Notes: generated by a model not told the origin, from the sequence alone. A stretch of 64,000 nt of DNA from an uncultured Candidatus Woesearchaeota archaeon (GCA_903915225.1 CAIWSB010000089.1:5835-69834), one strand, 5' to 3'. Counted from the stretch's first letter, positions 7,771-32,195 are shown. Made by a program: numbers and translations.

Positions 7771-7807
7771 AAAAAACAAAGAAACCCTCGCTTAAAAAGG
7801 TTCCGCA

Positions 7808-8239: not shown

Positions 8240-8461
8240 TATTTTATCACCTTTATTTTTATTACTATTAAGGGGTAATTTATAAATATAACGGTTGCTG
8301 ACAAAAATGCAGAGTTTTTGAATGTTTTTCGGTTTTTATTGTTTAAAAGCGCAAAATATCCACAAATTTCCAGAGAAGTGTCAAAATTCATTTATAAATA
8401 ATGAAATATTTCCGGAATTTTCCTAAGAAATTTTAATAAGAATTGTTGTGGCCTAGATGCC

Positions 8462-9772
8462 ATGAAAACACCAAAAATACTCGGGATGGTTCTGGTTTTT
8501 ATCCTGGCAACAACCTGCGTCTGGGCTAGGTCCAATGTGCTCATAACCGAAGTGATGTACAACCCCATTGGGACTGAGAACGGGCTTGAGTATGTTGAGC
8601 TGTTCAACCAAAATGATGTGCCTGTCAATATAGGCGGTTGGATTATATCATCAAGCTCCTATGACACAGATGCCACAATACCAAACGGCACAGTAATCCC
8701 GGCAAAATCCCATTTCCTGATTGCCGATGAGGGTTTCGCATTGTCGAAACCTGCCTCATGGCCTCTTGCAGATCATGAAGAGGCGCTCACCTTAAGCAAT
8801 ACTGCGGGGGGTGTGGCCCTTGTTGGCTCAACTGTCGTGGAAGACAGCGTTGGGTGGGGTCCTGTGAGCAACCCGAAGCTCTTCGAGGGCAGCCCTGCCG
8901 CACTTGGAGATGAGGGGCTAAGCTTGACTCGAGAAAAAAGTGGCGATGCGTACATAGACACAGGCAACAACTCCAAAGATTTCACATATCAGCAGCCAAG
9001 CCCGAGCAACTCAATCGGGCAATTGGGGCCGAACAAGGATTTGGCAATAGAACTCACTATTGAGGATTCTGCTCCAGATATCCTCTATGTCAATGTAACT
9101 GATGAAGCACCTGAAAAGTCGGGCATACAAGTTTTCCCCGCGCCGGGGCAAACAAAGAACCTGGAAGTCGCTGTTGGGGTTCGTGATTTGTCCGGGGATA
9201 TAAAAGGGGTGGGGCTAGGGTTTGACAATATCTCACTAAACCTCACAGATGTGGTTAATGAAACCCAACCCACGAGAGTATATTCCGGGAAGATACCAAT
9301 AAATTACCACATTACCCCTGGATTACATTATATTACAGTAACTGCATGTGACTCCGGCGACTGCGCAACCTCAACAATTGGCATTGATATCGGTGAGGTG
9401 CTGGCCTTCAATGTCGACACCACAAAGATCTCAATTGACACAAATCTCGGCGGGTCTTACCAGCTGATTGGCGACCTAGACCCGAGCACTCCTGCAAAGC
9501 CCACTTTGCAAAACACTGGCAACAGCCCCCTTAATCTAATGGTTTCCACAAACGGACTGCAGCTAAACCAGAGCCAGATCCCTCCAAGTGCAATAAGTGT
9601 GCAAATATCCCGGGCAGAGCCAGTTGAGTTTTTTGAGCTCTCATCAAACTATCTCACAACAGAATCCCTGGCTGTGAAGGGCATACTGAGATTATCCTTG
9701 CGCTTTGATTTACCGAGAACCCTAGTGCCGGGAGTCTATAACGGGCACATCACGCTCACAGCTGTAAAATGA
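8462..9772 (+). CDS. Secreted protein with an N-terminal lamin-tail-domain (LTD)-like module.
   Basis: Signal peptide MKTPKILGMVLVFILATTCVWA. Following it is SNVLITEVMYNP...GLEYVELFNQNDVPVNIGGWII...SHFLIA, typical of LTD (PF00932-like). Confidence 0.6.
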   Translation: MKTPKILGMVLVFILATTCVWARSNVLITEVMYNPIGTENGLEYVELFNQNDVPVNIGGWIISSSSYDTDATIPNGTVIPAKSHFLIADEGFALSKPASWPLADHEEALTLSNTAGGVALVGSTVVEDSVGWGPVSNPKLFEGSPAALGDEGLSLTREKSGDAYIDTGNNSKDFTYQQPSPSNSIGQLGPNKDLAIELTIEDSAPDILYVNVTDEAPEKSGIQVFPAPGQTKNLEVAVGVRDLSGDIKGVGLGFDNISLNLTDVVNETQPTRVYSGKIPINYHITPGLHYITVTACDSGDCATSTIGIDIGEVLAFNVDTTKISIDTNLGGSYQLIGDLDPSTPAKPTLQNTGNSPLNLMVSTNGLQLNQSQIPPSAISVQISRAEPVEFFELSSNYLTTESLAVKGILRLSLRFDLPRTLVPGVYNGHITLTAVK

Positions 9773-10239
9773 GGCGGCTGTTTTATTTTTTGTTGCTGTT
9801 TATTTCTATCAGCTCTGCTAATGCCCTCGGAATTGGCATTTCCCCCCCTGAGATTTCAGCCAACTGCTCCGAGGGCACTATCTGCAGCCTTCAATTAAGG
9901 GTTTTTAATCCTAACAGCGAAGCTATTGCGGTGAATGCCGAGCTGGAAAAGCACAATGCATGGCTCAATTCCAAAGGTGCAGAGGTTGAACCCTTCTCGT
10001 CGAAGCTTTGCCAGATAACCCTAGTGCCCAATCAAACAGGGCTTATTGAGGATAGATTAATCCTCAAAACAGCAGGGGGAAACCTGGATGCTGCAGTGGG
10101 TGTGGCAATTAAGTTAAAAGTGAAGCAGAAAGAAAAAGTCGCAACTGGCGTCCTGGTTACAGGGTCAATTGTTTTGGTAGGGCTGGGTTGTATGGGAGCA
10201 ATAAGGATAGTAAAGGTACCAAAGGGAAACAAAAGTTGA
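9769..10239 (+). CDS. Small secreted protein with a C-terminal membrane anchor.
   Basis: Its start ATGA-overlaps the upstream stop. It has a signal peptide, and a C-terminal TM helix followed by a basic tail (...LVGLGCMGAIRIVKVPKGNKS). Confidence 0.5.
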   Translation: MRRLFYFLLLFISISSANALGIGISPPEISANCSEGTICSLQLRVFNPNSEAIAVNAELEKHNAWLNSKGAEVEPFSSKLCQITLVPNQTGLIEDRLILKTAGGNLDAAVGVAIKLKVKQKEKVATGVLVTGSIVLVGLGCMGAIRIVKVPKGNKS

Positions 10240-10284
10240 GATATCTTTTTGATAAAACGAATTAATAATTAGAAAGAATCGATT

Positions 10285-10776
10285 TTAATCAAGCTTAGGT
10301 AAGTCAAATTCATAGGTTGGCTTTCCCATTTCTCTAATCATTGTTGTTTCACGGAGGGATTGGGGGCCAATTCCAATCCTTACCATCGCATCAAGGCCGT
10401 AATGAGGATGGTTTTGATATTCTCCAACTTTTTCTGGTTCAACATCTTTGATTACTCCAACCCCTCTTACGAAAACAGGACTTTCCTCTCCCCAGTTTTT
10501 TCCAACAATTACAGGTTTTTCAGTCATTGGAAATAAGTCATAGTTAGCTGCCTTCACGCAAGCAACCCCACCTGTTCCAAATCCCCTTTGGGTCGCCAAT
10601 TTGTAAGCCTGTGCAAGGACTCCAACATTTGTTGCACCTGAGACAATTACAATATCTCTACCTGCAAAATCGGATTCAATCCTATCAAAAGCCTCTTCCA
10701 GAAACTGTAGTGCTTTTACTTCATCATATTTTGTAGGTGGGCAATAACCAACGACTCCTATTCTTGCTTGTTTCAT
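10285..10776 (-). CDS. Rossmann-fold nucleotide-binding protein (LOG/SLOG, TIGR00725-like).
   Basis: IGVVGY...VIVSGATNVGVLAQAYKLATQRGFGTGGVACV resembles SLOG-family glycine-rich motifs. The function is uncertain. Confidence 0.4.
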   Translation of the reverse strand: MKQARIGVVGYCPPTKYDEVKALQFLEEAFDRIESDFAGRDIVIVSGATNVGVLAQAYKLATQRGFGTGGVACVKAANYDLFPMTEKPVIVGKNWGEESPVFVRGVGVIKDVEPEKVGEYQNHPHYGLDAMVRIGIGPQSLRETTMIREMGKPTYEFDLPKLD

Positions 10777-10885
10777 TTTAATTACTATAGAGTAAATAAT
10801 AATTATTTAAATCTTTCGGTATTCATTTTTTGTTTGAAAAACATAATAATATAGAATAAAATCTATTTTGGGAACAATTTACGTT

Positions 10886-12643
10886 CTATGCATAATACAG
10901 CTTCCCGGTTGTCTTTTGCTCCCTGTCAAGCCTCGAATCCAGCTTGTTTATCCTCGGGCGTTTGGACTCAAGGTCACGCCGTAGGGTTATGCCCAGCACG
11001 CCCAGGAAGAGGTTCATACCAGCTTCCATGGAGAACGGACCTTTTAAAGTGCCTGAGACAGCTGGCTTGCCTTCGAAAACAATCAAATCTTCAGATAGGT
11101 AATCCAGAAAAAGCAAATCATGGTCAACAATAAGGGCAGTTCTGCCTGTGGTTTGAATGAGCCGGCTTATTATTTTAGACACCTGGAGGCGCTGCTCCAC
11201 ATCAAGATAAGCAGATGGTTCATCTAACAAATACAAGTCGGCCTCCTCAGAGAGGCATTTTGCAATCATCACCCTCTGAAGCTCTCCACCAGAGAGGCTG
11301 CTAACGGGCTCTGTCAGCAATGGGTCCAGCTCAAGTGGATGCACAAGCTCATTAATGTGGGTGCTGATGGCGTGTTTAAGGAAAATCCCCACTGGCTCTT
11401 TGCTGTCTGAATCAATATATTGGGGCTTATAGCTCACGGAAACACTTGCATTTAGCTCTCCCTGGTCAGTTGGGATTTCGCCGGCAAGGATTCTCACGAA
11501 AGTTGTCTTGCCGATGCCGTTTTCACCCAAAACTCCAACTAGGTGCTTACGGTAAATGATGCCAGGTTCAGAGGAAAAGGAAAAGTCGCCCAGCTTTTTC
11601 TTAAGGGGCTGCCACTCCACCAAGGCCTGCCCTTTCGCTAGCTTCACTGGGGGTTTGTCGTCGAAAGTGATGGCTCCGGGGCGGAAGCGGATGTTCTCCT
11701 TCCTCATGAAGCCCCGAAGATACTCATTGACTCCCTCACGGGTGGACATTGGGCTTGAAATCACACCATAACCTGAGGGGACTCCGAATGTGATGTGCAC
11801 CAACTCGGTCATGTGGTCAAGGATTATTAGGTCATGCTCGATTACCACAACAGCAGTCTGCTCATTGGCCAGGCTTTGGATGTACTCGCTCACGCGGACC
11901 CTCTGCTTGATGTCAAGGTAGGATGTTGGCTCGTCGAAGAAGAACACATTCGCCTTCTTAAGCGAACAGGAGGCTATTGCCACCCTTTGGAGCTCACCAC
12001 CTGAAATTTGAGAGAGCTTGCGGTCCAGGAACTGGGTCAGCTCGAGCTTCTCAGCCACTTCCTTCATACGCCCCGTCTCGTCCATCTTTTTGAGGAGTTC
12101 TCCGACTGTGCCGCTGAAGCGCTTTGGGAGCAAACTGACCTGCTGCGGCTTCACAGCAACCTTAATTTTGCCTGCATTTAGGTTCTCAAAATAGTTGTGG
12201 AGCTCTGTTCCCTTAAAATACTCGATAAGCTCTTGTATCGACGTATTGTGCTCGGGTTTGCCAAGGTTGGGCTTGAGCTGGCCAGAGAGTATATTGATTG
12301 CAGTGCTCTTTCCAATGCCGTTCTTGCCAATAATGCCCACAACCTTGCCGAAAATGGGTATTGGGAGGTTATATAGATGGAAGCCGTTCTTGCCGTAGGC
12401 GTGTATTGGCGGCTTGCTAAGCTCCTCGGGGAGGTTTATGATATTTATTGCCCCAAATGGGCATTTCTTAATGCAAATCCCGCAGCCGATGCACAGGTTC
12501 TCGTCAATAGCCGCCTTGCTGTCTGGAGTCTTGGAAATACACTCATCCCCCTTCCTGTTAATGGGGCACACCCTAACACAGAGGTAGTCCCCGCAATTAT
12601 TTGGGGCGCATTTCTTCTTGTCCAAAACAGCTATCCTGACCAT
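10886..12643 (-). CDS. ABCE1 (RNase L inhibitor-like ribosome recycling ATPase).
   Basis: The N-terminus has a 2x[4Fe-4S] ferredoxin-like domain (CVRVCPINRKGDECI...CIGCGICIKKCP). Two ABC ATPase domains follow (GKNGIGKST, GENGIGKTT, LSGGELQR x2). I take the start at MVRIAVLD (12643) rather than the ORF-track start at 12664. Confidence 0.9.
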   Translation of the reverse strand: MVRIAVLDKKKCAPNNCGDYLCVRVCPINRKGDECISKTPDSKAAIDENLCIGCGICIKKCPFGAINIINLPEELSKPPIHAYGKNGFHLYNLPIPIFGKVVGIIGKNGIGKSTAINILSGQLKPNLGKPEHNTSIQELIEYFKGTELHNYFENLNAGKIKVAVKPQQVSLLPKRFSGTVGELLKKMDETGRMKEVAEKLELTQFLDRKLSQISGGELQRVAIASCSLKKANVFFFDEPTSYLDIKQRVRVSEYIQSLANEQTAVVVIEHDLIILDHMTELVHITFGVPSGYGVISSPMSTREGVNEYLRGFMRKENIRFRPGAITFDDKPPVKLAKGQALVEWQPLKKKLGDFSFSSEPGIIYRKHLVGVLGENGIGKTTFVRILAGEIPTDQGELNASVSVSYKPQYIDSDSKEPVGIFLKHAISTHINELVHPLELDPLLTEPVSSLSGGELQRVMIAKCLSEEADLYLLDEPSAYLDVEQRLQVSKIISRLIQTTGRTALIVDHDLLFLDYLSEDLIVFEGKPAVSGTLKGPFSMEAGMNLFLGVLGITLRRDLESKRPRINKLDSRLDREQKTTGKLYYA

Positions 12644-12916: not shown

Positions 12917-15352
12917 ATGGAGTTAGATAAGCATTACGACGCAAAGGCGTCAGAGAAGAAGTGGCAGGATTTCTGGCTTAAGGAAAAAATCTATGCCTTC
13001 AACCCGGCCACGAGAAAGAAGATATTCTCGCTAGATACACCTCCACCGACTGTCTCCGGGAGCATGCACATAGGGCATGCAGTTGCCTATTCCCAGGCGG
13101 ATTTCATAATGCGCTACAGGAGGATGGTAGGGGATGAGATTTTCTATCCCTTTGGGTTTGACGATAACGGCCTGCCTTCTGAGCGCTATGTGGAGAAGAA
13201 ATGCGGCGTCAAAGCCACGAAGATGAAGCGGGATGAGTTCAGGAAGCTCTGCATGGAGCAGACTGCAGAGGCTGAGGAGAACATGCTCAAGCAATTCCTC
13301 TCAATTGGGCTTTCACCTGACCTGCAGCTTCGGTACCGAACAATTGACAAGCGCGTGCAGCGCATGTCGCAGCTAAGTTTTATTGAGATTCATGAGATGG
13401 GGCGCGGTTACAGGAAGGAAGCCCCGATTATATGGTGCCCCGAGTGCCAGACTGCAATTGCGCAGGTGGAGCTCAAGGACAAGCAGTTCAGCTCAATGTT
13501 CAATGACATTGTTTTCAAAGTGGGGAGCAGCAATCTGATAATCTCAACAACAAGGCCAGAGCTGCTGCCATCCTGTGTTGCGGTTTTCTATAACCCTGCT
13601 GATGAGAGATACCAGCAATTGAAGGGCAAGGAGGCAAAGGTGCCCCTGATGGACTTTAAAGTCCCAATCCTTGAGGATGCAAAGGTGGACATGACCAAGG
13701 GCACAGGCATTGTCATGTGCTGCACTTTCGGAGACCAGACAGATGTGGAGTGGTACGGCAAGCACAAGCTTCCCCTAAAAATGTCCATCACAAAGGACGG
13801 TAAAATGGCTGAGAGCACTGGAAAGTATGCGGGGCTCACTATAAAGGAAGCAAGGACTGCAATAATTGAGGATTTGAAAGCGAGTGGCCTACTCAAAGAC
13901 CAAAATCCATTGTCGCATTTCGTAAACGTGCACGAACGGTGCGGGACAGAAGTCGAATTCATAGTTTCTAAGCAATGGTTTGTCAAGTACCTTGACTTAG
14001 TGGACAAGTTTGTTGAGATGGGGAACAAACTCAAATGGTACCCTGACCACATGAAGGCTAGGTACGAGAACTGGGTTAAGGGTTTGCGCTGGGACTGGTG
14101 CATATCCAGGCAGCGCTACTTCGGCGTTCCGATTCCGGTTTGGTATTGCGCAAAATGCGATGCTGAGATTATTGCCAGCAAAGATAAACTGCCTATTGAT
14201 CCTCTGGTGGACAAGCCTCCAGTGAAGCAATGCCCAAAATGCGGGTCAACTGAGATTGTGCCAGAGAAGGACGTCATGGACACTTGGGCGACATCATCAC
14301 TGACGCCGTTCATAGCAGCCAAGTGGCGTGAGGATGAAAAGCTCTTTGATAAAATATTCCCGTTCTCGCTGAGGAGCAATGGCCACGACATAATCTCATT
14401 CTGGCTTTTCAATACAATAGTCAAGTCATGGCTACACGAGAAGAAGCTGCCCTGGAAGGATGCCATGATAAACGGGTTTGTGTTGGACCCGCACGGCGAG
14501 AAAATGTCAAAGTCCAAGGGCAACATTATCCTGCCGGAAAATGTGCTAAACCAATTCTGCGCTGACGCACTCAGATTCTGGTCGGCATCTTCAAAGCTCG
14601 GCGAGGACCTGGCATATCAGGAGAAGGATCTGGTTACTGGGATGAAATTCCTGACAAAACTCTGGAACGCCTCCAGGTTTGCGCTGATGCACCTCGAGGA
14701 TTTCAAGGGTGGCAAGCCTAGGAAAATGCACCCGGTGGATCTTTGGATGATAAGCAAGTTCCAGGATGTGATCAAGGAATCCACTGCTGCATTTGAGGAT
14801 TACGAGTTTTCCAAGGCAAAGCAGGTTGTTGAGAACTTCTTCTGGCACACCTTCTGTGACAATTATCTGGAAATGATTAAGGCTAGGCTGTACCTTGAGG
14901 ACAAGGCAAACCCAGAGCGCGTTTCCGCACAATATACAATCTATTATGTGCTACTCAACATCCTAAAGCTGATTGCACCGCTGCTGCCGCACATCGCTGA
15001 AGATATTTACCAATCGTTCTATGCAAAGTCCGAAAATGACAAGAGTATCCACATTGCCAGCTGGCCTATCTACAATGCTGAGCTAAAGGACGCCGCAGCC
15101 CAGAAAGGGGGCGACCTGGTTGTGGATATGGTTACCCGAATCAGGAAATTCAAGTCAATGAGGGACATGAGCCTTAAGGCTGGGATTGATGTGCTCACAA
15201 TAGAGAAGAAGTTTGAGAAGGCAATAGAGGGTTTTGAGGACACGCTTAGGGCAACAACCGCCACCAGCAGGATTGTGTTTGGCAGCCCGATGGAGCTTTC
15301 AACAGAGGAATTCGGCGTAAAGATGGACATCGCCCTGCACGAGGGCGTTTAA
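12917..15352 (+). CDS. valS: Valyl-tRNA synthetase.
   Basis: HIGH region PPPTVSGSMHIGHA, KMSKS motif (EKMSKSKGN), DWCISRQRYFG, and an 811 aa length typical of archaeal ValRS. Confidence 0.85.
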   Translation: MELDKHYDAKASEKKWQDFWLKEKIYAFNPATRKKIFSLDTPPPTVSGSMHIGHAVAYSQADFIMRYRRMVGDEIFYPFGFDDNGLPSERYVEKKCGVKATKMKRDEFRKLCMEQTAEAEENMLKQFLSIGLSPDLQLRYRTIDKRVQRMSQLSFIEIHEMGRGYRKEAPIIWCPECQTAIAQVELKDKQFSSMFNDIVFKVGSSNLIISTTRPELLPSCVAVFYNPADERYQQLKGKEAKVPLMDFKVPILEDAKVDMTKGTGIVMCCTFGDQTDVEWYGKHKLPLKMSITKDGKMAESTGKYAGLTIKEARTAIIEDLKASGLLKDQNPLSHFVNVHERCGTEVEFIVSKQWFVKYLDLVDKFVEMGNKLKWYPDHMKARYENWVKGLRWDWCISRQRYFGVPIPVWYCAKCDAEIIASKDKLPIDPLVDKPPVKQCPKCGSTEIVPEKDVMDTWATSSLTPFIAAKWREDEKLFDKIFPFSLRSNGHDIISFWLFNTIVKSWLHEKKLPWKDAMINGFVLDPHGEKMSKSKGNIILPENVLNQFCADALRFWSASSKLGEDLAYQEKDLVTGMKFLTKLWNASRFALMHLEDFKGGKPRKMHPVDLWMISKFQDVIKESTAAFEDYEFSKAKQVVENFFWHTFCDNYLEMIKARLYLEDKANPERVSAQYTIYYVLLNILKLIAPLLPHIAEDIYQSFYAKSENDKSIHIASWPIYNAELKDAAAQKGGDLVVDMVTRIRKFKSMRDMSLKAGIDVLTIEKKFEKAIEGFEDTLRATTATSRIVFGSPMELSTEEFGVKMDIALHEGV

Positions 15353-15354: not shown

Positions 15355-16824
15355 CTAGAAAATAAACTTAAGGATCAGACCCAGGATTACACCTGCTGCT
15401 GCTCCAATCCCCAAACCCCATAACATACTCGCTGCAGGGAGTTCAAGTGCGAGCCAGACGATTAAACCCACTATGACTCCAACAATTGCACCAATTAATG
15501 CAAGCCTTAGGATATTTTTATTCTCTGAAGAGCTATCTTTCGCACATGCATCGCCCTTTCCATCCTTGTCTGTGTCCTTTTGGTCAGCGTTTGCCACATC
15601 AGGGCAGTTGTCGCACACATCCCCCAATTTATCTCCATCGCTATCTGTCTGGACAATATTTACTTCGGAAACGCAGTTGTCGCATGCGTCTCCCACACTA
15701 TCACCATCTGTATCCAATTGGTCTACGTTCTGGATATCAGGGCAGTTGTCCTTGTCATTTAAAATCCCGTCATGATCTCTGTCGTTGTTTAACGAAGGAC
15801 CTGAAGTCACTGTTGTTGTGGTTGTCTGTAAGGGGTTGCTTTGGATATATCTCATACATGAGTTTGAGTCGCACTGCCCAATGGTTGCGAAATCAACCCA
15901 GACAAATCCCTCGCCTGTACACTTCACATTTTCTCTCTGGTTGCCTCCCCAAACATCATCGGGTGAGTGTGAGCAGCAACAGCCCTTGGTGCATTCATTC
16001 CAGTTGGCAAAATTAATTGAGTTCATCATTGCGCATGCCACTGAGCCCTCCTGGCAGGTATCGGCTTGGTAATAGAAGAACCAGTTCTTGAGGCAGTCTG
16101 CCTGATCCTTGGGGCCATTTTCGTTTCCGGTGGCATAGGCTTTTGGGTCATCTGCCGGGCAGCACTCTTTTGCAACCTGGTTATATGTGCAGGGGCTTGT
16201 CTTAGGGTTTACGCAGCATCCGCTCTTCTCCTGTTCTCCCCCTTGGCAGATGCTGTTTGTGCAGCCACCAGGGCACCAGTTCGTTGTTTTCATGCAAGAG
16301 CCACTTGAACAGAAATATTCAGCAGCCCTGTTGCTCCCATCGCAATCGTCCACAAAGCCATGCCCTTGGGCGTCAATACAAATGCTCTGGACATCAAAGT
16401 TTTTTCCATCTGGATGGGCTGCGTCAACATCAAAGTCCTTGCATGTTCCTAAGGGAACGTTACCATAGCTCTTGCGGCAAACCCCTTTATCTATATCGCA
16501 GCCGAACTCGCATTTCTCTTCAGTAGACATGCAGAAAGGGGGATGACACTGGTAGCAGAACCATTCCTTAAGTGTTGACAAACTAAGGCATTCATCTGGT
16601 ACATTAGTTACTGTGCCATCGCTGCATGTTCCCCACTCGTAAATCTTCCTCCCATTATCAGTCTCAGAGCATCCAGAATATGGTGTCGCAATGGTGGTAG
16701 TTGTGCCACAACCAACCCCGCCGACACTCCCTCCACACTTGGGGGATGTAGAATCTTCAGCAGAAACAATTATAGGAACAAATAGAAATAATATAAGTAA
16801 AACCAGCAGCACCCTTTTAAGCAT
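15355..16824 (-). CDS. Secreted cysteine-rich protein with thrombospondin type-3 (TSP3) calcium-binding repeats and a C-terminal TM anchor.
   Basis: Signal peptide, then about 60 Cys residues in repeated modules. TSP3-like repeats ([26 protein letters not shown]...[34 protein letters not shown]) precede C-terminal hydrophobic helices. Confidence 0.7.
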   Translation of the reverse strand: MLKRVLLVLLILFLFVPIIVSAEDSTSPKCGGSVGGVGCGTTTTIATPYSGCSETDNGRKIYEWGTCSDGTVTNVPDECLSLSTLKEWFCYQCHPPFCMSTEEKCEFGCDIDKGVCRKSYGNVPLGTCKDFDVDAAHPDGKNFDVQSICIDAQGHGFVDDCDGSNRAAEYFCSSGSCMKTTNWCPGGCTNSICQGGEQEKSGCCVNPKTSPCTYNQVAKECCPADDPKAYATGNENGPKDQADCLKNWFFYYQADTCQEGSVACAMMNSINFANWNECTKGCCCSHSPDDVWGGNQRENVKCTGEGFVWVDFATIGQCDSNSCMRYIQSNPLQTTTTTVTSGPSLNNDRDHDGILNDKDNCPDIQNVDQLDTDGDSVGDACDNCVSEVNIVQTDSDGDKLGDVCDNCPDVANADQKDTDKDGKGDACAKDSSSENKNILRLALIGAIVGVIVGLIVWLALELPAASMLWGLGIGAAAGVILGLILKFIF

Positions 16825-16869
16825 TTTAAGTCGGTAATACCTTATACTAGTATTTAAAATTTTGCATAA

Positions 16870-18684
16870 TTAAATCAGGCCGAACAGTGAGCCAACTATT
16901 CCTCCAACAACACCGCAGGCAAACACAAGGGGCAAAAGTATTGGGGCGAGGGCAGGCACGGTGAGTGCAATAATCCCTCCAATAACCCCACCAACTATAG
17001 CGCCGAAAAGTGCATACTGTTGGGTCTTGTTTGAACTACCATCGCAGGCATCCCCCTTACCATCACTGTTAGTGTCCTTTTGGCTGGGATTGGATTTGTC
17101 AATGCAGTTGTCACAAGCATCCCCCACTTTGTCATCATCCCCATCCGCCTGATCCTGGTTGGGGGTTTCAATGCAGTCGTCGCAGGCATCACCCACCGAA
17201 TCTTTATCAGTATCACTCTGGTCTGCATTTTTTACAAAAGGGCAATTGTCGCAAACATCGCCAATCTGGTCCAAATCAGAATCCTTCTGATCAGGATTGC
17301 TAACATCAATACAATTGTCCATGGCATCGCTAATGCCATCCTTATCTATGTCTTCAGAAGAGGCTGGAGGTTTTATCGAAGATTGGTCATCGTTAACGAT
17401 TTCCTCAGCTGTTCCCCCCATTATTTTTGCGCAGGCCTCATTGCTGCATTCATTAATCTCTCCAAAAGATTTCCACTGCTGCTGGCTTCCGCCGCATTTT
17501 ATCTTGGACAGTTGAGAGCCCTTCACAAATCCTGATGGGGAGCGCTCGCAGCAGCAGCCCTGTTCACAGTATCCCGCATTGTCAAAATTCGCTGTGGTCA
17601 TCTGGGCGCAGGCATCATCACTGCTATAAAAGAAGAACCAATCGCGGGAGAGGCATTGCTGCCTATCTTTTGGACCCACTTCTATGGGGGAAACATATTG
17701 GGTTGTATCCTCTGGACAGCAAAGGCTGGCTGATTCGTAATACGTGCAGGCATTCTTTTTGGGGTTGAGGCAGCAGCCCCCCCCTTGAGTCATTTCTGGC
17801 TGCTCAACGAGGCACGCACCGGCAGCGCAACCCCAGGTGCATTTCTGCATTGCATCCATTGCACAGCTGCCGCCCAGGCAATAGAATTCCTGGATATGGC
17901 ACCTGTCACCTGAGCAGGAATCAACATATTCAAAGTTAGTTCCATCATCAGTGAGGACGCATTGGTCAGTCCAAGATTTGAGCCTGTCATTGCAGGTCCC
18001 CTGGACGAAAAAGTCCTTTGAATTGTCTGTCTCTGAACAATCCTGCCGAGGCTGCTCTGTAGCCATTGGAATCTCAATTGTTGTAAAAGTCCTGACCTTG
18101 CAAGCCCCATTCTCGCAGCCCAGCGGGCACCAATTGTCCTTTGGGAGGCATTGTGATTCTGGTTGACTATTGCACTCTCTGCCGTGGCAGCCTCCGCTAG
18201 GAGTTGCCGGACCGCAGTAGTATTCCTTTAAGCGATTGCCATCACAAGTGTCTGGAAACTCCTGTTCACTTCCTGTCCCAATGCCATCTGTGCAGAGCCC
18301 ATTAACCTCTGGAAAAATCCCTTCGTCAGTGTCATCGCAGCCAGGCGCGGGGTAAGTAATTTTTGTTCCGCTGGGCAGACAGGCGCCATTAAGACAGCCA
18401 TTGTCGCACCAGGCGTCGTTTGGCATGCAAAGCCCCTCTCGGCAGTAATACTCGGTTAGCCTCACAGGGTACCCGGCGGCTTCGTAGTCACACTTGTCAA
18501 TAACTGTTCGGGTGGCATCCTTGCACACGCCTTGCATATAGACATTGAATCCGCCATCCTCCTCACAGCATGTGCCACTGTTATCCAAATAACAGACCGA
18601 GTCCCCACAATCGCAGGCTGCTGCAATTCCTGCGCATAGTATCATAGCGAGCAACAGTGCCAAACAGAACCTCATTAATTTCAC
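16870..18684 (-). CDS. Secreted cysteine-rich protein with TSP3 repeats (a paralogue of the 15355-16824 gene) and a C-terminal TM anchor.
   Basis: Same architecture as the 15355-16824 gene. It has three CxDTDxG...C..GC..GAC modules, a shared GCC(V/L)NPK..CTY...CCP.D...GPKD..CL module, five TSP3-like repeats (DxDxDxxGDxCDNCP), and a C-terminal TM. Confidence 0.7.
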
Positions 18685-18880
18685 CAGTTTTGCTATGGAG
18701 ATTTGTAATATACTAATATAAATAATTTAGGGTAAGGACAGCCGTGAATAAAAAACAGTAAAATTAGCCCCGTACATAATGGCAAAGAGTAACGGATTCT
18801 AGCGAAACTTTGCACGATGTGCACAAAATATCTGTTTTAAGATTTTTTTGTTATTATAGAGTGATTACACTTCGAAAGGT

Positions 18881-18916: not shown

Positions 18917-19693
18917 ATGGTGAATATTGACATTACAGGTAACTGTAACCAGAGATGCGAGTTTTGCTACCAAACCCTGGATGGCTCAAGCCTGCCAACC
19001 GACGTGATTTTGGACGTGGTTCAAGAACAGAAGAGCGATAGCAGCGTCCAAGTGGGTGGAGGAGAGCCAATGCTTGATCCTCGGATATTGTGGCTAATAG
19101 AAAAATTTGTTGACATGGGGAAAAGGGTGCACATTGCCACCAATGGGACAGTTATTCCAGAGGGGCTTTTAGACCTTGAAGAGACTGTCAAGAAAAACGT
19201 CGAGATTCAGGTGAGCCTCCATGCATCCAGCCCTGAGCTTTACAAGAGCATTACTGGAACTGATTTTTTCGACAGGGTTTTAGAAAATATTGGGGCTTTG
19301 AAAGCCCATTTCACAACTCTCATCACAAGTGTGGTTTATCAGAGAAATTATGGTGATATGCAGAATATCATTGACTTGGCCGAGCAGATGGGCTTGCCGC
19401 TGCGCGTGAACCTTGTCTTCCCAGTGGGGCTCGGCAAGGATGTGATTCGGCTGACCTCAAAGCAGGTTGAAGGGCTGCGCGGGCTGCTGCTGGCTGAGAG
19501 GCTGGGAAAAAAGGGGATGATTGATTCGCCGCTGGTGCATGCCGAAAGCAACTGCCATGCGCTGGAAGTGGCATATGGAATCCCACGAACAGGGCAGTGC
19601 CCGTTCGACCTGGGGAAGCTCTATGTTGCCCCGAGCGGTGAGAGATTTGGTTGTGAATTTTATAGAAAGAAGGAAAGGAGGAATGAAAAATGA
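18917..19693 (+). CDS. Radical SAM enzyme with a C-terminal twitch/SPASM-like Cys motif.
   Basis: CNQRCEFC (CxxxCxxC) near the N-terminus, a GGGEP SAM-binding motif, and C-terminal GQCPFDLGKLYVAPSGERFGCEF. Confidence 0.75.
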   Translation: MVNIDITGNCNQRCEFCYQTLDGSSLPTDVILDVVQEQKSDSSVQVGGGEPMLDPRILWLIEKFVDMGKRVHIATNGTVIPEGLLDLEETVKKNVEIQVSLHASSPELYKSITGTDFFDRVLENIGALKAHFTTLITSVVYQRNYGDMQNIIDLAEQMGLPLRVNLVFPVGLGKDVIRLTSKQVEGLRGLLLAERLGKKGMIDSPLVHAESNCHALEVAYGIPRTGQCPFDLGKLYVAPSGERFGCEFYRKKERRNEK

Positions 19694-21261
19694 CTACTCA
19701 ACCAACATGCCCCACGGGCCAAATGGCCATTAGGGCAAATGAAGAAAAGACAGTTAATGAAAAGACATATTATATTCCAAAAGCTTTGAAGGAAGATCTT
19801 GAGACAGTTATTGCCACATTGTCTGATATTGATAAATTTGGCAAGGAAATGGGTCACAGAAATATCCTTCTGACAGGCCCGCCTGGGACAGGTAAAACAC
19901 TGGGCGCAAGATTTATCGCATACAAGACCGGCTTTGTTTACTATGACGGCAAGAAGCTCTCTTCTGCCTTTGACATAATCAAGGTTTTTGATGAGCTCAG
20001 AAAGCAGGTTAAGGAAGGCAAAAAGGCAATCCTGATGCTTGATGAAATCGATAGGTTCTCTAGCAGGGAAGAGAGCAACGACCCGGGCCAGGTGCAGATG
20101 CTCAACCAGCTTCTGGCAGAGCTGGATGGAGTGGAATCCAACAACGGCATATTTGTCATAGGAATGACCAACATGCCAAACAGGATTGACCCTGCGCTGC
20201 GAAGGCCGGGACGATTCGGCAAGGAGATTGAGTTCATGCCCCCTGATGAGCAGGGTAGGCTTGAGATTCTCAAGATCCATGCAAATGGCAAGGGTGGCCA
20301 TCAGTTCAAGTTTGACCCAAAAGATGTTGAATATTTGGCTTCTGTCACATATGGATATACAGGCGGTGACCTGCGCGGCCTGCTGGATGAGGCCATGGCA
20401 CGCGCCAACCTCAGAAACTCCCTAAATGTAAAGAGGGAAGATTTGGACTTTGCCAAAGTAAGGATTAAGCCTTCTGCAATAAGGGATATGCCATTCAAGG
20501 AACCAAAGATTACAGTTGATGATATTGGTGGGTATGCCCTACATAAGGACTTGCTTGGGCAAATAGTAAGCAGCAAGCAGGGCGGGAACATTTTGTTCTA
20601 CGGACCTCCTGGAGTTGGCAAGACCACATTTGCAGAAGCGCTGGCCAAGCAGTATGGGCTTAACCTCATTGTTGTCAGCGGTTCTGCACCATTGGACAAG
20701 TATGTTGGTGAAACCGGGAAGAAACTCGAGAAATACTTCGACAGGGCCAGGCAGCTCGCGCCGTGCGTGCTGCTTTTTGACGGCTTTGACGCACTGATTG
20801 AGCGCCGAGGATTTGTTTCATGGGCCTCAGATTGGACAGGGCTGATTGAATCTAAGCTAAGTTCACCCATGGATGGGGTTTATGTCATTGCCACAACAGA
20901 AAAGCCAGAGCTCATCGGGCCAACACTGCTGGAGAAGTTCAGGCACAGGGTTTACTTCCCAATGCCACAGGCGGAAGAGGTCGCTGAGATTTGGGCAAGA
21001 TACCTTCCCGATGGCATTAGCCCAGAGACTATCAAGGATGCCAACCCACGGCTCAATGGTCTTGATATTGCCAGGGTCATGGGCATGATTAAGGATTTCG
21101 GCATCGAACCTACTACAGAAATCCTGACACAACTTGTGACAGGCATAGAGCACGCAACAGACCTAGAACAGCCTTCGCTCACTTTCCGGGATGCCAATGG
21201 GGATTCCATACAAGATTACCGAAAGATTAAAGCCTTGCTAGGAGGGCAAAATGGCGCTTGA
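19690..21261 (+). CDS. Tandem AAA+ ATPase (two AAA domains, CDC48-like, no N-domain).
   Basis: Walker A GPPGTGKT and Walker B LMLDEIDRF, then a second GPPGVGKT and LLFDGFDAL. SRH-like GMTNMPNRIDPALRRPGRF. It overlaps the upstream gene by 4 nt (ATGA). Confidence 0.8.
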   Translation: MTTQPTCPTGQMAIRANEEKTVNEKTYYIPKALKEDLETVIATLSDIDKFGKEMGHRNILLTGPPGTGKTLGARFIAYKTGFVYYDGKKLSSAFDIIKVFDELRKQVKEGKKAILMLDEIDRFSSREESNDPGQVQMLNQLLAELDGVESNNGIFVIGMTNMPNRIDPALRRPGRFGKEIEFMPPDEQGRLEILKIHANGKGGHQFKFDPKDVEYLASVTYGYTGGDLRGLLDEAMARANLRNSLNVKREDLDFAKVRIKPSAIRDMPFKEPKITVDDIGGYALHKDLLGQIVSSKQGGNILFYGPPGVGKTTFAEALAKQYGLNLIVVSGSAPLDKYVGETGKKLEKYFDRARQLAPCVLLFDGFDALIERRGFVSWASDWTGLIESKLSSPMDGVYVIATTEKPELIGPTLLEKFRHRVYFPMPQAEEVAEIWARYLPDGISPETIKDANPRLNGLDIARVMGMIKDFGIEPTTEILTQLVTGIEHATDLEQPSLTFRDANGDSIQDYRKIKALLGGQNGA

Positions 21262-22252
21262 ACAGCTTACAGAAAGGAAGGTTGCGTTCAGGAGTGTTGC
21301 ACCAACATATATACTTGAGCTCTTGGCCAAGGGCCAGAAGTTCGTGCCATTCCAAGGCCAAATTGACCCTAATAGCCTGCCACCTGGATACACAATAATG
21401 GAGATGCAGTACAAAGGCACTACTTTCAAAGCCATTGTCCCGCAGACACTCCTGTATTTCATGGCAAATCCTGGCGAGGGTAACGCTGATGGGGCTCTTG
21501 ACGAGCTGGCTGAATTCTACCGCGAGATTGAGGGCGTTGAGAACAGCGCAATTGCAAATGGTGAGACAAACCTCCAATTGGGCAAGTTCGGGCAATGGGC
21601 CAGGGAATCCTACGGAACGTATCTAATCAATAAAATAATTAGAATTAGGGGAGGCCAGGATGAGGAAGGCCAACCGCTAAGCGAGCTGGATCCAAAGGTA
21701 ATGGAAAGGCTTGGGCTTAACGACCCTTATGTTCTTGAAAGGATTAAAGCAATTGCAGCTGTTAGGCTCGGCAAGCGCTCGGACCAGGTTCAGGCGCACG
21801 ATGTCGGAGCCCTGCTGAAACATGTGACAGTCAGGGGCACTGGAAAAACAGAGCAATTGAGCAGGCCTGAGCTTGAGAGGGTTGCCTGCCACTGCGGGAG
21901 CCACTACGAGCTCAAGGCAGAGTTTAGGAATGACCCAAATTACTCATATCATGTTGTTGGCTACCAAGGCTCTAGAACTGAGAAAAAAATTGAGATATCA
22001 ACATTTGACCCCAAGGTTAGCCTGCTGGAGAAGGAGATTGTTGACCACGTGAAGGAGAAGAACGGCGGTAAGTTAGGTCCGCATGATGTTCAGATGCTAA
22101 GGACAGTCACAAACCTGCGCTACATTGCCCCTGAGAACCCGCGGGCACAGTTAAGCACAACTCCTCACGCCACACCTGCTGCTGAAAATGAGTTGACAAT
22201 CTACAAAGTGGAAGAGGGGACACCGAAACCAGATGAAGTCAAGAAGGTGTAA
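21251..22252 (+). CDS. Hypothetical protein (333 aa), co-operonic.
   Basis: It overlaps the AAA gene end by 11 nt and is 5 nt from the next gene. I recognise no motif. Confidence 0.5.
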   Translation: MALEQLTERKVAFRSVAPTYILELLAKGQKFVPFQGQIDPNSLPPGYTIMEMQYKGTTFKAIVPQTLLYFMANPGEGNADGALDELAEFYREIEGVENSAIANGETNLQLGKFGQWARESYGTYLINKIIRIRGGQDEEGQPLSELDPKVMERLGLNDPYVLERIKAIAAVRLGKRSDQVQAHDVGALLKHVTVRGTGKTEQLSRPELERVACHCGSHYELKAEFRNDPNYSYHVVGYQGSRTEKKIEISTFDPKVSLLEKEIVDHVKEKNGGKLGPHDVQMLRTVTNLRYIAPENPRAQLSTTPHATPAAENELTIYKVEEGTPKPDEVKKV

Positions 22253-22257: not shown

Positions 22258-23870
22258 ATGCCGCTGCAAACCATTGCTGGAGAGGACAAGCAGCATGCTG
22301 AGCTGCTACGCCTACTCCAAGCTATGGGGGAAATAAGGCGCGGGGAAGAAACTGGAAACCCCAATCTGGAGAAAAGGGATAAATACCTTGGCCTGAGCCA
22401 GGAATTTGGCGAGCTTCTGGACAGCATGCCTGACATTAAGGTATCTGTTAAGTATCTTGTTCAGCGTGCTGAAAATGGAGAGGGAGCAGAGTATGACCCA
22501 TATTTTATTGAAGCCTGGGAACAGATTTACCCGGATTTTATTAATGTGCTCGAGAATCTGACTATCCAGCTAATGGGCGATGACCTTGCGGGTTTCAAGA
22601 GCACACACCACATTTGGAACGCGATAAAATATCTATCAACAGAAGGCAAGCCCTTGAAAGACAGCCTAAAAGTTTATGACACAATTCTCCCTGTTCAGCC
22701 ATCGCTTGATCTCAAGGGATTCACAGTCACGGGAATTGAACCAAGTGATGGTATCCTCACATTAGGGCGTGAACCGGATAAATTAGAAGATATAGTAAAG
22801 AGGGCTTCCCAAATCGGATTCAAACGCTTGAGGACCGAAATTGACCTAAACAATCCTACGGATTCTCAATCTGCTGTGCTGACGAATTACAGGAGAAAAG
22901 ATATCACACCGAATAAGGGTGTGGCTGCAAAGAAAAATAAGAAAGGCCTTTTCGAAAGGATATACAATCCTGTCACGGCGATCCCTTTAAATTTTATAAT
23001 TGGGGGGTTACCAGCTAAAATTCAGGTATGGATTAGTGAAAAATATAAGAAGAAAGGGCTAGAGATTAACTCAGATGTGTGTAGTGGATACAATTGGATG
23101 GGGGAAACTGTGATGAGTGCCATTGCAGCTGTGGTTTGCCCCTTAACATTAGGGTTATGGACGGTTGGCCCAACTGCAGGATATTTTGGGTATTCAATAA
23201 TAAGATTTATTTGGTCGGCTGTTAAAGATACAAGACAATTGGAAATGCTCTCTGGAAAATCCCTCTTCTGCCAGTTGAATTGGCAATACGTAATAAAGAA
23301 AATCCAAAAAAAGGAGCTAAAAAACCAGAGAACTGGGCCCTGATGGAGATTGAATTGGGGTCTGTTAGAAACGTAAATAGGGGCTTTGCCCAAATATATG
23401 AGCCAGTTTCAGAAAACCTCCACCCTTCGATGAGGAGATTGGCTGAGGTTCAATTGGATCAAAAGCAAGAGGATAACCTTGTGTATTCTCCAAAGAACCA
23501 CAACTACCAGGGAAGCCTATTCCGGGATGCCTTGCAGGTTCAAGGGAGTGGGGCTGTAGTGTTAAGGGAATTGGATAAATGCGACCTCTACAGGGATCTC
23601 AGTGCAATCACATTCTACAAAGTCATGACCGAACACAAATACAGTAAGACATCTGCATTGGTGTGCTACCAAAACAGGCGTTATGCAATCACCTTGGTAA
23701 CACCAAATGAATTTGAGCCAAAGGAGCTCCCAAAGCTATTGGCAGACACATCTAAGCCAATTGAAGAAAGAGTTGAGGGGCTTGCGAAATCATCAAGAGC
23801 ATTATACGCCCACGTGACCCAATTTGAAAAATGCCAGAAGACAGCAGACCTGGTCTGGAGGCAGGGCTAA
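22258..23870 (+). pseudogene. Frameshifted copy P1 of the tandem paralogue family, as two ORFs 22258-23343 and 23280-23870.
   Basis: The N-terminal ORF aligns with the N-terminal 360 aa of P2 and the C-terminal ORF with the C-terminal 190 aa of P2. They sit in different frames with a -1 shift near 23275-23285, which is not a homopolymer tract. Confidence 0.55.
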
Positions 23871-23871
23871 G

Positions 23872-25467: not shown

Positions 25468-25468
25468 C

Positions 25469-28332: not shown

Positions 28333-28336
28333 CAAG

Positions 28337-30025: not shown

Positions 30026-31557
30026 GAACTGTTGTCATCCAAGCCCCGGAGAGAGACAAGTCTCTAGTGAAGCTGCTAGACTCCATGGAAGACATCCGGC
30101 GACAAGAACTCGCAAAAGGAGAATCTGAAAGCACCCAGCAGAACGAGTATCTCATACTGGCTGACAGACTGCGCTCGGAACTAAAACCAAGATTGGGCGT
30201 TGCAGAGGACTTCGATAAGATTGTTGCCATTTTGGCTGATAAACCCCATCTCATGCATTATGATGTATCCAGCGAAAGCATGTGGCGGCAGGTAGAGCCG
30301 GAGATATCTGAGCTTTTAGATAGAGTCTTAATTGAAGCAATGGGTGATGATTTCAGAGGAGTTGCTGACAAGCAACATGTGCTCAATGCAGCAAAGTGCG
30401 AAATGTGCGCCAATTGGCCACTGAAAACCAGGCTTGAGGTTTACGATTATGTCAGACCGGTGCTTGACTCAAGCAGAACCCTAAACTCAATCACAAATGT
30501 GGGGGAGATAATTGGCAACGGAACTGAAATTCTAATTAAGGGAATTCCAAGGGACCTTGAAGAAAAAATCAGGCAAGCTGGGGAGATGGGCTTCAAATAT
30601 CTCATATTGAGGGCAGATTATTATGAAAACAGGAAAGATATAAAAAAAATGAGGGGGAGAAAGGGATGGGAGATAAAGGGCATGGGTGCCCAGAGAAGCC
30701 CCGATAGATCTTATACCCCGAGAATCATGCAACGCCTCTATCCATTGATAGGAGCACTTCCTGCCTCGTTGCAAAGAAGGGTGTATATTAATCTAGAGAA
30801 AAAGGGGATAACCTATGATGAGATGACTCCGAGTATGCGTAATTCTGCCGCATCAATAGTTACTGACATGATAACTGCAGGAGGTTTGATGCTGCTTACC
30901 CAAAACCCTTTGGTTTATGTTCCTGTTTTTGGATTAATTGCAGTGGATTACCTTAGGCTATTGTACTCATTTGGAACAAGCATGTTTAGGAACAACATCG
31001 GCAGAAACCTCAATAAGCCAATGGGCTCCCCTGTTGCAAAAATAGTCCTATTTCCAATTGAGCTTATCCTCGGCGGGGTTTACGGCAAGGTTGCGTACAA
31101 TCCCTTAGAGATTAAGATACACTTAGACCAGGATGGCAAAGAGGAGCAGACTGCACCAAACCTCCATCCAATAATGGAAAAGCTGGCATCTAGTGAAGAT
31201 GGGGCCAGCAACTTTGAGCTGGCGGAAAAATTGAAGGCGCAAGCCCCTGGAACACCAATTCTCACTAGCCAAAGCAATAAAAATGATACTTTCACCTTGT
31301 ATAATATAGTCTCCGATTGTTCCCCGTTCAATAAGCTCTCAGCACTGGTCTGCCTCAGCGGCGAACGTTATGCAATAACAATTATTGGGACAAATGAAAT
31401 CAATTTGGAGCAAGTTTCTGAGACGCTTTCTGATGCAAAACTCCCGATTGAGCAAAGGCTATGTGAGATTGCAGAGAGGAGTGGAGTGCGCTTTGCACAT
31501 TTAACACACTACAGCCAGGGTAAGAAAACAGAGGATATGGTGGCTTATTCCAATTAG
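30022..31557 (+). CDS. Paralogue P6.
   Basis: EAMGDDFRGVADKQHVLNAAKC, IGALPASLQRRV, a hydrophobic segment, SALVCLSGERYAITIIG, FAHLTHY. It overlaps P5 by 4 nt. Confidence 0.65.
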   Translation: MRTVVIQAPERDKSLVKLLDSMEDIRRQELAKGESESTQQNEYLILADRLRSELKPRLGVAEDFDKIVAILADKPHLMHYDVSSESMWRQVEPEISELLDRVLIEAMGDDFRGVADKQHVLNAAKCEMCANWPLKTRLEVYDYVRPVLDSSRTLNSITNVGEIIGNGTEILIKGIPRDLEEKIRQAGEMGFKYLILRADYYENRKDIKKMRGRKGWEIKGMGAQRSPDRSYTPRIMQRLYPLIGALPASLQRRVYINLEKKGITYDEMTPSMRNSAASIVTDMITAGGLMLLTQNPLVYVPVFGLIAVDYLRLLYSFGTSMFRNNIGRNLNKPMGSPVAKIVLFPIELILGGVYGKVAYNPLEIKIHLDQDGKEEQTAPNLHPIMEKLASSEDGASNFELAEKLKAQAPGTPILTSQSNKNDTFTLYNIVSDCSPFNKLSALVCLSGERYAITIIGTNEINLEQVSETLSDAKLPIEQRLCEIAERSGVRFAHLTHYSQGKKTEDMVAYSN

Positions 31558-32195
31558 CCAGACCAGCAAGAGCCTAATGTCATCCAGTTGATGAAGCTAT
31601 TGTACTCAAGATAGCCCACCTGCCTCCTCGTGCAGCCCGGCTGGATAAAAACACTCACCGGAATTCCTGTTACTTGATACTTTTGCACATCAGCATTGCC
31701 ACTGCTGGCATAAATTCTCTCAACCACAATGTTGGGGTACTCTGCCTCAACCTGGCTTATGACTGGCTTCTCCTTTTCACACCAACCGCAGGTATCGCTG
31801 TAAAAGAACTTTAGGGTTCCACTAATTGAACTGCCTTGACGGGTGGTTGTCGTTGTGAGCCTGCTAGTAGAAGAGGTATGCAGTATAGTTGTGAAAGTCA
31901 TTCCAGAAAACTCTATTGGAACAAATACCGGGTTGTTAATGCACCTGCCGAAAAGGCAGCCGTTGGGGCAATTGCTGCTTGAAGCTACACAGCCATTGCT
32001 GCCGCAGGAATACTCAACCAAGATAGTTAAGTCAGCTGAGCAATAATCGGCCTTCTCGCCGATGCCGTCTGTGCATTTGCCGAATTTGGAATAATCCTTA
32101 CCGTTGTCTGTATCACTGCACTCACCGTAGACTAACCCGGCAAGAAGAATAAATAGGATTAAAATAGAAACGCCTTTGAAATTAATTGTAACCAT
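31554..32195 (-). CDS. Secreted fusion of a Cys-rich CxDTDxG module and a thioredoxin-like (CGWC) domain.
   Basis: Signal peptide. The module CSDTDNGKDYSKFGKCTDGIG...CPNGCLFGRC matches the modules in the 15355-16824 and 16870-18684 proteins. The C-terminal region carries a CGWC (CxxC) thioredoxin-fold motif (FFYSDTCGWCEKEKP...TGIPVSVF). Confidence 0.6.
   Translation of the reverse strand: MVTINFKGVSILILFILLAGLVYGECSDTDNGKDYSKFGKCTDGIGEKADYCSADLTILVEYSCGSNGCVASSSNCPNGCLFGRCINNPVFVPIEFSGMTFTTILHTSSTSRLTTTTTRQGSSISGTLKFFYSDTCGWCEKEKPVISQVEAEYPNIVVERIYASSGNADVQKYQVTGIPVSVFIQPGCTRRQVGYLEYNSFINWMTLGSCWSG

Follow-up and report, generated by a model that had tools for sequence, protein, structure and literature searches.

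Tandem genes of a Candidatus Woesearchaeota archaeon encoding predicted surface proteins that combine cysteine-rich modules with thrombospondin type 3 repeats

Thrombospondin-type genes have been described from the archaeal Poseidoniales (MGII) and from deep-sea Thaumarchaeota, where they were read as adhesion factors (PMC6461757, PMC7265257), and the Ca2+ binding of bacterial thrombospondin type 3 (TSP3) repeats has been shown to depend on a disulfide within the repeat (Dai et al. 2017, as cited in PMC12045341). The DPANN archaea live largely in association with hosts, and attachment between cells is of central importance in this group (PMC6349945). The present analysis concerns two tandem genes, A and B, located in a 64,000-nucleotide stretch of DNA from an uncultured Candidatus Woesearchaeota archaeon (GCA_903915225.1, CAIWSB010000089.1:5835-69834), hereafter the window. 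Their products are TSP3-repeat proteins of a known kind; what is new is a 14-Cys domain, here called GCC, that occurs together with a small 8-Cys module, the fusion of these modules to thioredoxin domains and a C-terminal hydrophobic hairpin. No description of these proteins was found in the literature on TSP3 in Woesearchaeota or DPANN.

Genes A and B, their TSP3 repeats and hydrophobic tails

The initial annotation of the window described A and B as tandem paralogs, and an open reading frame (ORF) scan recovered both genes with the same boundaries and lengths (Table 1). The two products align with 33% identity over approximately 520 columns (BLASTP, E=3e-64) and are collinear across nearly their full length. 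Each is composed of a signal-like segment, two (A) or three (B) small 8-Cys modules, one 14-Cys GCC module, a linker, four (A) or five (B) TSP3 units and a Gly-rich two-helix tail. The richness in Cys is particular to these proteins within the window, where Cys content elsewhere is 0-2.6% and other signal-peptide proteins contain 0.2-0.7%.

Table 1. Positions of the genes, their domains and related loci; residue numbers (aa) refer to the predicted products.
Feature	Position	Strand	Basis or remark
Gene A, 489-aa predicted TSP3/Cys-rich surface protein	15355..16824	-	ORF scan; 8.2% Cys
A predicted signal peptide, aa 1-22 (MLKRVLLVLLILFLFVPIIVSA, cleavage before EDS)	16759..16824	-	basic n-region, hydrophobic core, V-S-A at -3 to -1
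A small module copy 1, aa 49-117	16474..16680	-	local HMM E=3e-25
A small module copy 2, aa 125-194	16243..16452	-	local HMM E=9e-28
A GCC module, aa 196-330, one extra Cys in a 6-residue insertion	15835..16239	-	alignments, family search
A four TSP3 units of 23 residues, aa 348-428	15541..15783	-	Pfam TSP_3; DxDxD at 348, 371, 394, 417
A Gly-rich two-helix hydrophobic tail, aa 436-489	15358..15519	-	hydropathy
Gene B, 604-aa predicted TSP3/Cys-rich surface protein	16870..18684	-	ORF scan; 9.4% Cys
B predicted signal peptide, aa 1-23 (...CAGIAAA, cleavage before CDC)	18616..18684	-	hydropathy, A-A-A at -3 to -1
B small module copy 1, aa 36-103	18376..18579	-	local HMM E=8e-27
B small module copy 2, aa 113-196, Cys-containing insertion	18097..18348	-	local HMM E=7e-24
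B small module copy 3, aa 213-292, Cys-containing insertion	17809..18048	-	local HMM E=7e-23
B GCC module, aa 293-425	17410..17808	-	profile search, 14 conserved Cys, AlphaFold2
B five TSP3 units of 23 residues, aa 445-548	17041..17352	-	Pfam TSP_3; units at 445, 468, 491, 514, 537
B Gly-rich two-helix hydrophobic tail, aa 556-604	16873..17019	-	hydropathy
213-aa predicted secreted protein: signal peptide, small module aa 23-86, Thr-rich linker, thioredoxin domain with CGWC	31554..32195	-	small-module HMM E=3e-11
GCC genes of contig L001 (positions on that contig)	1876-4059; fragment 4301-4867; 5464-7065; 8544-9947; 9815-11083		
HMM, hidden Markov model.

Both proteins score above the gathering cutoff of the Pfam TSP_3 family (PF02412, 25 bits), A with 37.7 bits and B with 27.6 bits, and both exhibit tandem acidic D-x-D-x-D-G-x-x-D loops and Cys pairs, which bears out the TSP3 repeats called earlier. 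The period is exactly 23 residues in A and B, the final unit of B reads D-x-N-x-D, and a Thr-rich linker (aa 331-347) precedes the units of A. The paired Cys residues lie 20 residues apart in A (361/381, 384/404, 407/427) and in B (458/478, 481/501, 504/524, 527/547), and this spacing across acidic loops is the layout that would be expected of disulfide-closed Ca2+ loops. Within the Protein Data Bank (PDB), the repeat region of B matched COMP (3fby, 3.2e-35), thrombospondin-2 (1yo8, 5.5e-35) and thrombospondin-1 (1ux6, 8e-12). A search with full-length B returned 340 TSP3 matches, which, besides B itself and A, covered the TSP3 part alone, at most about 28% of the query. The NCBIfam model NF047638 (MtsC) scored 68.4 and 79.5 bits against a cutoff of 350 and aligned with the repeat region only, so neither protein is assigned to MtsC, and the NCBIfam Omp28 selenoprotein model gave a partial match over the same region. 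The combination of TSP3 repeats with the Cys-rich module in an archaeal surface protein had been called unusual; the repeats taken by themselves are not, as archaeal TSP3 genes are reported in the two studies cited above (PMC6461757, PMC7265257) and the NCBI record of one relative reads 'thrombospondin type 3 repeat-containing protein [Candidatus Woesearchaeota archaeon]'. The TSP3 part is ordinary, and is so annotated in public records already; the unusual part of A and B is the GCC module, which is rare and for which neither the PDB nor BFVD yielded a fold relative.

The N-terminal signal peptides and C-terminal transmembrane helices that had been proposed are matched by signal-like hydrophobic segments at the N-termini, judged by eye, and by a pair of hydrophobic segments at the C-termini. 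The hydrophobic core of the A signal peptide reaches a Kyte-Doolittle hydropathy of 2.9. The tails are approximately 50 residues long with 16-20% Gly and comprise two hydrophobic helices and a Pro-containing turn. Five GxxxG motifs and two charged residues were counted in A (49-residue hydrophobic stretch scored), and six motifs and one charged residue in B (56-residue C-terminal stretch scored). Only about 8-10 residues separate the last TSP3 Cys from the first hydrophobic helix in both proteins. An uncharged Gly-rich tail is common to 21 of the 33 family members, and several of the others are visibly truncated. The tail may be described as a glycine-zipper-like hairpin anchor. Its assignment as a bona fide glycine-zipper domain was rejected because the scores fall below cutoff and most relatives' tails match nothing: in Pfam, the A tail matched Gly-zipper_OmpA below threshold (E=0.007), the B tail gave sub-threshold matches to Gly-zipper_Omp, Rick_17kDa_Anti and YMGG, the scores as a whole lie at 11-18 bits against glycine-zipper cutoffs of 24-29, and for PF05433, PF13488 and PF13436 the isolated tails of A and B reached 15-18 bits against 24-27, while the tails of eight relatives showed no match. 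The NCBIfam YiaD Gly-zipper/OmpA model matched the tail alone with 16 bits against a cutoff of 175. An archaeosortase signal was likewise rejected, as the tail has no PGF/PEF motif, consists of two helices and has no basic end; the NCBIfam scan of A and B returned no sorting-signal match.

The product of gene A is identical to database protein P0019, which is present on three contigs. The ORF of gene B opens with GTG at 18684, and the next ATG at 18675 (window 18673-18684) is more likely to be the start. Database models of the identical B sequence begin at Met4 (P0121, 601 aa) or Met14 (P0001, 591 aa); with a start at Met14, the signal peptide would lose most of its n-region and some of its h-region. 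A TATA-like TTTATATT was read from the sequence at approximately 18715-18722, about 40 nt upstream of the B ATG, and a TATA-like TTTTAAATA about 30 nt upstream of the A ATG, which suggests that each gene has its own element. Gene A is convergent with a class I aminoacyl-tRNA synthetase gene (12917-15352, +), probably encoding valyl-tRNA synthetase; the stop codons of the two are 2 bp apart, so that there is no space for separate terminators between them.

Cysteine-rich modules and their relatives

Several Cys-rich modules of approximately 60 aa had been proposed. Cys-rich modules are present, but they are of two kinds, a repeated 8-Cys module and a single GCC module of approximately 130 aa. 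The possibility that these are diverged copies of one unit was rejected with an hhalign probability of 0.6%. Neither kind matched Pfam or NCBIfam, or any PDB sequence profile at E<=10, in agreement with the novelty claimed for them, and the Pfam scan of A and B at E<=1 returned TSP_3 alone besides the weak tail matches, with PDB matches confined to the type 3 region.

The small module spans approximately 65-85 aa with eight Cys in the pattern C-x-D-T/S-D-x-G...G-x-C-x-D...D-x-C...L-x-E-Y-x-C...C...C-x-x-G-C-x-x-G-x-C. The alignment contains 25 copies in 13 proteins, five of them in A and B and one in the 213-aa protein at 31554-32195. The thioredoxin domain of this protein scored 28.3 bits in Pfam against a cutoff of 23.5, and its NCBIfam matches to thioredoxin/PDI-type models were sub-threshold. 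This protein carries the small module without GCC, as does P0124, which ends in a PEF-CTERM-like tail (PEF...RRKH). A word-indexed search with the five small modules returned P0124 alone, and the same type of search with the Cys-rich region returned only the query itself. The method is insensitive here and missed even the paralog, so the apparent orphan status was not taken at face value.

The GCC module is approximately 120-140 aa long and is defined by 14 Cys in the family pattern G-C-C-x-N-P...C...C-C-P...Y...G-P...C...W/Y-F...C...C-x-x-G-C-C-C...C...C-x4-C. A and B carry all 14 family Cys and these motifs, and their alignment contains in both the shared motif noted initially, GCC(V/L)NPK...CTY...CCP.D...GPKD...CL...GCCC..SP. 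A HMMER search of 1.84 billion cluster representatives with a GCC profile identified 30 at E<=1e-3 and 18 at E<=1e-10; 28 of the representatives lie beyond the window proteins, with non-self E-values down to 7e-23. Conservation of the 14 Cys in these 28, together with the 25 copies of the small module in 13 proteins, rules out a low-complexity coincidence of Cys spacing. When genome, metagenome and viral contigs were scanned with one peptide pattern, two distinct loci and an extra copy of one contig were obtained, with none on viral contigs. The named relatives (MBW2988048.1, RLE43591.1) belong to Candidatus Woesearchaeota, and the placed contigs belong to the Woesearchaeota metagenome-assembled genomes (MAGs) AB_69_Bin_160 and B29_G15 from Guaymas. 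Every named or placed relative is so far from Woesearchaeota, and the family is to this extent lineage-restricted.

Within AB_69_Bin_160, contig L001 (JAFCCU010000002.1) carries, at 1876-11083, at least five GCC genes clustered around the cysteinyl-tRNA synthetase (CysRS) gene, and a sixth, P0138, lies elsewhere on this 111-kb contig. The gene at 8544-9947 encodes the same architecture as A and B, and the fragment at 4301-4867 resembles a copy that has been truncated or has suffered a frameshift. A gene for a secreted protein that joins thioredoxin to a Cys module is found next to CysRS both in the window (31554-32195 and 32232-33638, both -) and in L001 (5464-7065 and 7127-8515); the module is the small module in the window and GCC in AB_69_Bin_160. 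This adjacency may reflect conserved synteny or a functional link of Cys-rich surface proteins with CysRS.

The confident AlphaFold2 model of the B GCC module, built from a 28-sequence alignment, is a compact alpha/beta domain (predicted local distance difference test, pLDDT, 92.7; predicted TM-score, pTM, 0.80). Foldseek searches with this model gave a best E=2.4 and TM<=0.18 against the PDB and a best E=1.6 against BFVD. The GCC fold thus has no relative among solved or viral-predicted structures.

Relatives exhibit a common layout of signal peptide, variable N-terminal part, GCC, spacer and hairpin. The variable part may be made up of small modules, a papain C1 peptidase or thioredoxin, or may be missing altogether. 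The spacer consists of TSP_3, He_PIG immunoglobulin-like (Ig) domains or other Cys-rich domains. Pfam matches among the 31 GCC members comprise TSP_3 (12), He_PIG Ig (four), papain C1 peptidase (two) and thioredoxin (two). Among P0130, P0144, P0128 and P0137, some have a C1 peptidase of the papain family at the N-terminus (E=7e-37) and others a thioredoxin domain; because of these fusions, the GCC family would also tether enzymes at the cell surface. GCC directly follows the signal peptide, and is thus the most distal domain, in approximately 11 of 31 relatives. This position is seen in P0127, P0131, P0134, P0139, P0141 and P0152, where a different Cys-rich region of approximately 250-300 aa (...CDP...CCY..ECAA...) without a Pfam match comes next, followed in most by TSP3. 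P0140, P0147, P0146 and P0152 are GCC proteins without the hairpin.

The Cys complement of the modules shows regularities. Exactly 14 Cys are present in 21 of the 28 GCC modules. In P0148, which is the only complete module short of two conserved Cys, C304 and C359 are lost together, and in P0150 C377 and C418 are lost together. Cys2 and Cys5 of the small module are lost together in three independent copies. Thioredoxin is fused directly to GCC in P0128, P0137 and the product of L001 5464-7065. Paired Cys loss, even Cys counts and the secreted thioredoxin fusions favour disulfides over metal clusters or free thiols, and we infer four disulfides in the small module and seven in GCC that would be made or repaired extracellularly.

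Predicted role at the cell surface

The explanation preferred here, with slightly better than even confidence, is that A and B are paralogous, membrane-anchored, disulfide-rich surface proteins with a role in Ca2+-stabilised attachment, either to a host or partner cell or to a surface. Attachment is the most likely role in view of the host-associated lifestyle inferred for DPANN and Woesearchaeota (PMC6349945) and of a family that has expanded in tandem and diverged, and Ca2+-dependent adhesion between cells or to a host would be a reasonable reading of the domain content and this lifestyle. Both proteins would be exported by Sec and anchored in the cell's own membrane by the C-terminal hairpin. 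The TSP3 units would bind Ca2+ to form a short rigid 'wire' with one disulfide per unit, serving as a membrane-proximal stalk, a position taken in relatives by Ig-like He_PIG domains. The Cys-rich modules would fold by means of four and seven disulfides, aided by the secreted thioredoxin-fold proteins that bear these same modules, and would form an exposed head that binds a ligand or partner. The gene family would diversify through tandem duplication and domain shuffling.

Several points weigh against attachment or leave parts of the model loosely fixed. The signal peptides were called by eye from hydropathy and cleavage-site residues, and the hairpin turn lacks positive charges, which makes the topology uncertain. 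Full-length AlphaFold2 prediction from a two-sequence alignment reached a pLDDT of 30, and neither the domain arrangement nor the small-module fold can be read from it. The Cys connectivity rests on paired loss in a handful of sequences, and the relatives in Guaymas MAGs come from an anoxic, sulfidic setting in which extracellular disulfides are not obviously stable. Lastly, GCC adjoins enzymes (papain, thioredoxin) in some relatives, and could serve in docking or assembly instead of forming a binding head.

In a view that is rather unlikely, GCC and the hairpin are a lineage-specific anchoring or assembly unit, oligomerising or docking to the S-layer or envelope, that displays a varying cargo at the N-terminus. 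The small Cys modules would then be the cargo of A and B, and GCC would bind nothing external. The constancy of GCC and the tail across the family, set beside N-terminal domains that vary, speaks for such a display unit, as does the occurrence of the small module without GCC in P0124 and the window thioredoxin protein. However, GCC is the most distal domain in approximately 11 of 31 relatives, a position more in keeping with a head than with a dock close to the membrane, and the hairpin is missing from P0140, P0147, P0146 and P0152. A purely structural role, with A and B as Ca2+-stabilised constituents or anchors of the envelope or S-layer of a very small archaeon that recognise no specific partner, is quite improbable. 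It would agree with the membrane anchor and the acidic, Ca2+-binding-type repeats beside the membrane, with the use of bacterial TSP3 repeats as linkers in OmpA-like and TraB envelope proteins, and with the location of the genes among housekeeping genes. Multi-copy, fast-diverging paralogs (33-40% identity, with at least five clustered in L001) and shuffled domains are more typical of interaction proteins, though, and a core envelope protein would be expected lineage-wide whereas this family is very rare in metagenomes (30 representatives).

The density of Cys is very high and includes vicinal CC and CCC motifs, the relatives come from anoxic habitats rich in metal and sulfide, and one relative has a MopE-type putative metal-binding motif; these observations could be taken to mean that the CC/CCC motifs coordinate metals or Fe-S-type clusters extracellularly, for sequestration, detoxification or electron transfer. 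Even Cys counts, paired Cys loss, fusions to secreted thioredoxin-fold oxidoreductases, the confident compact alpha/beta fold obtained without cofactors and the lack of CCG, metallothionein or ferredoxin similarity in Pfam or PDB make metal-thiolate proteins very improbable. The least credible proposal, with next to no weight, is that the glycine-zipper hairpin enters the partner membrane as a pore or fusion element targeted by the ectodomain. The tail is uncharged, rich in GxxxG, free of a positive-inside signal and located at the extreme C-terminus, with weak matches to glycine-zipper families, and DPANN archaea are reported to make direct cytoplasmic contacts with their hosts (PMC6349945). 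There is nonetheless no homology to any pore-former, the glycine-zipper matches are below cutoff and absent in most relatives, and the arrangement of an N-terminal signal peptide with a hydrophobic segment at the C-terminus is the usual one for surface proteins that anchor themselves. A bolder reading, decidedly unlikely as a whole, would make GCC and the hairpin a Woesearchaeota-specific host-interaction system, in which tandemly expanding proteins display binding modules and enzymes (papain-like protease, thioredoxin) at the symbiont-host interface and are folded by dedicated extracellular oxidoreductases even in anoxia, the hairpin perhaps engaging the partner membrane; if true, the proteins would be direct molecular handles for finding the hosts of Woesearchaeota.

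Woesearchaeota are among the most widespread DPANN archaea, and uncharacterised surface proteins are common in DPANN genomes. No identification of Woesearchaeota hosts or attachment machinery was found in the papers and tools consulted. The locus defines a small, lineage-restricted family of predicted surface proteins around an undescribed, predicted disulfide-rich domain, and the domain is a candidate new family and fold for databases. Its members are concrete candidates for a part in host attachment or surface display, and could serve as baits or antibody targets. They would also exemplify disulfide chemistry outside the cell in archaea that typically occupy low-oxygen habitats. The family is a useful lead for DPANN cell-surface biology, with its function resting on inference.

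Genomic setting and comparison with known systems

The window is core archaeal chromosome and encodes RLI/ABCE1, CysRS, isoleucyl-tRNA synthetase, a split RpoB, RpoA', FttA/aCPSF1 and a Cdc48-type AAA ATPase. The archaeal host given in the initial annotation is supported by RLI/ABCE1, the split RpoB, RpoA' and FttA, and by the window CysRS (32232-33638, -), which is 65% identical to the CysRS of the Woesearchaeota MAG AB_69_Bin_160. A radical S-adenosylmethionine (SAM) gene (18917-19693) is divergent from gene B. Its product was rejected as a maturase of the Cys-rich proteins, as NCBIfam scores are far below cutoff and indicate no specific subfamily; no radical SAM gene was noticed in the L001 cluster, whose flanking ORFs were not scanned against Pfam. 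The two-domain Cdc48-type AAA ATPase (19690-21261) is followed downstream by five co-directional paralogs on the plus strand (22258-23343, 23824-25467, 26686-28332, 28337-30025 and 30022-31557; together 22258-31557), which are 23-42% identical to the first of them, have one hydrophobic segment each near residue 285-305 and show no Pfam match. The ORFs interspersed among them (21251-22252 and 25469-26665) also lack a Pfam match. At 8462-9772 (+), a predicted secreted protein with a Lamin Tail Domain (PF00932, 55.6 bits) is encoded, followed by a small signal-peptide protein (9769-10239, +); both are Cys-poor. On the minus strand, Rfam identified a partial tRNA at 52294-52358 (model positions 7-64, 41.5 bits) that is absent from the ARAGORN calls, and ARAGORN called a tRNA-Asp at 52418-52492 that is not in the Rfam list at gathering threshold. 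Two neighbouring tRNA genes may thus be present at 52294-52492, of which one would be atypical, perhaps truncated or interrupted by an intron.

Among described systems, the tail most resembles two C-terminal or membrane elements. The glycine-zipper 2TM and Gly-zipper_Omp domains of bacterial outer-membrane lipoproteins (PF05433, PF13488, PF13436) share with it paired short Gly-rich helices and repeated GxxxG, whereas the tail of A and B is located at the extreme C-terminus of an archaeal protein. PGF-CTERM and PEF-CTERM archaeosortase substrates are archaeal surface proteins that likewise end in a C-terminal hydrophobic segment, but the tail of A and B has two helices (approximately 50 aa) and neither a PGF or PEF motif nor a basic cluster at its end. 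Regarding the repeats, the reports on the TSP3 genes of Poseidoniales and Thaumarchaeota describe no GCC, small Cys modules or hairpin tail. Bacterial TSP3 envelope proteins, namely OmpA-like proteins, Myxococcus TraB and the 'cell-cell cohesion' protein MtsC, include cell-cell contact proteins and resemble A and B in using short TSP3 runs as a Ca2+-binding linker near an envelope anchor. A and B lack their beta-barrel, OmpA domain and MYXO-CTERM, no OmpA or barrel match was found in either protein with Pfam or NCBIfam, and the remainder of the proteins is unrelated. Metazoan thrombospondin and COMP (3fby, 1yo8, 1ux6) have in common with A and B the 23-residue D-x-D-x-D-G-x-x-D-x-C-D-x-C unit with a Cys pair per Ca2+ loop. 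Unlike these proteins, A and B have no TSP_C lectin-like domain, EGF repeats or coiled coil; they contain just four or five uniform long units with a membrane anchor directly after them, and are encoded by an archaeal host.

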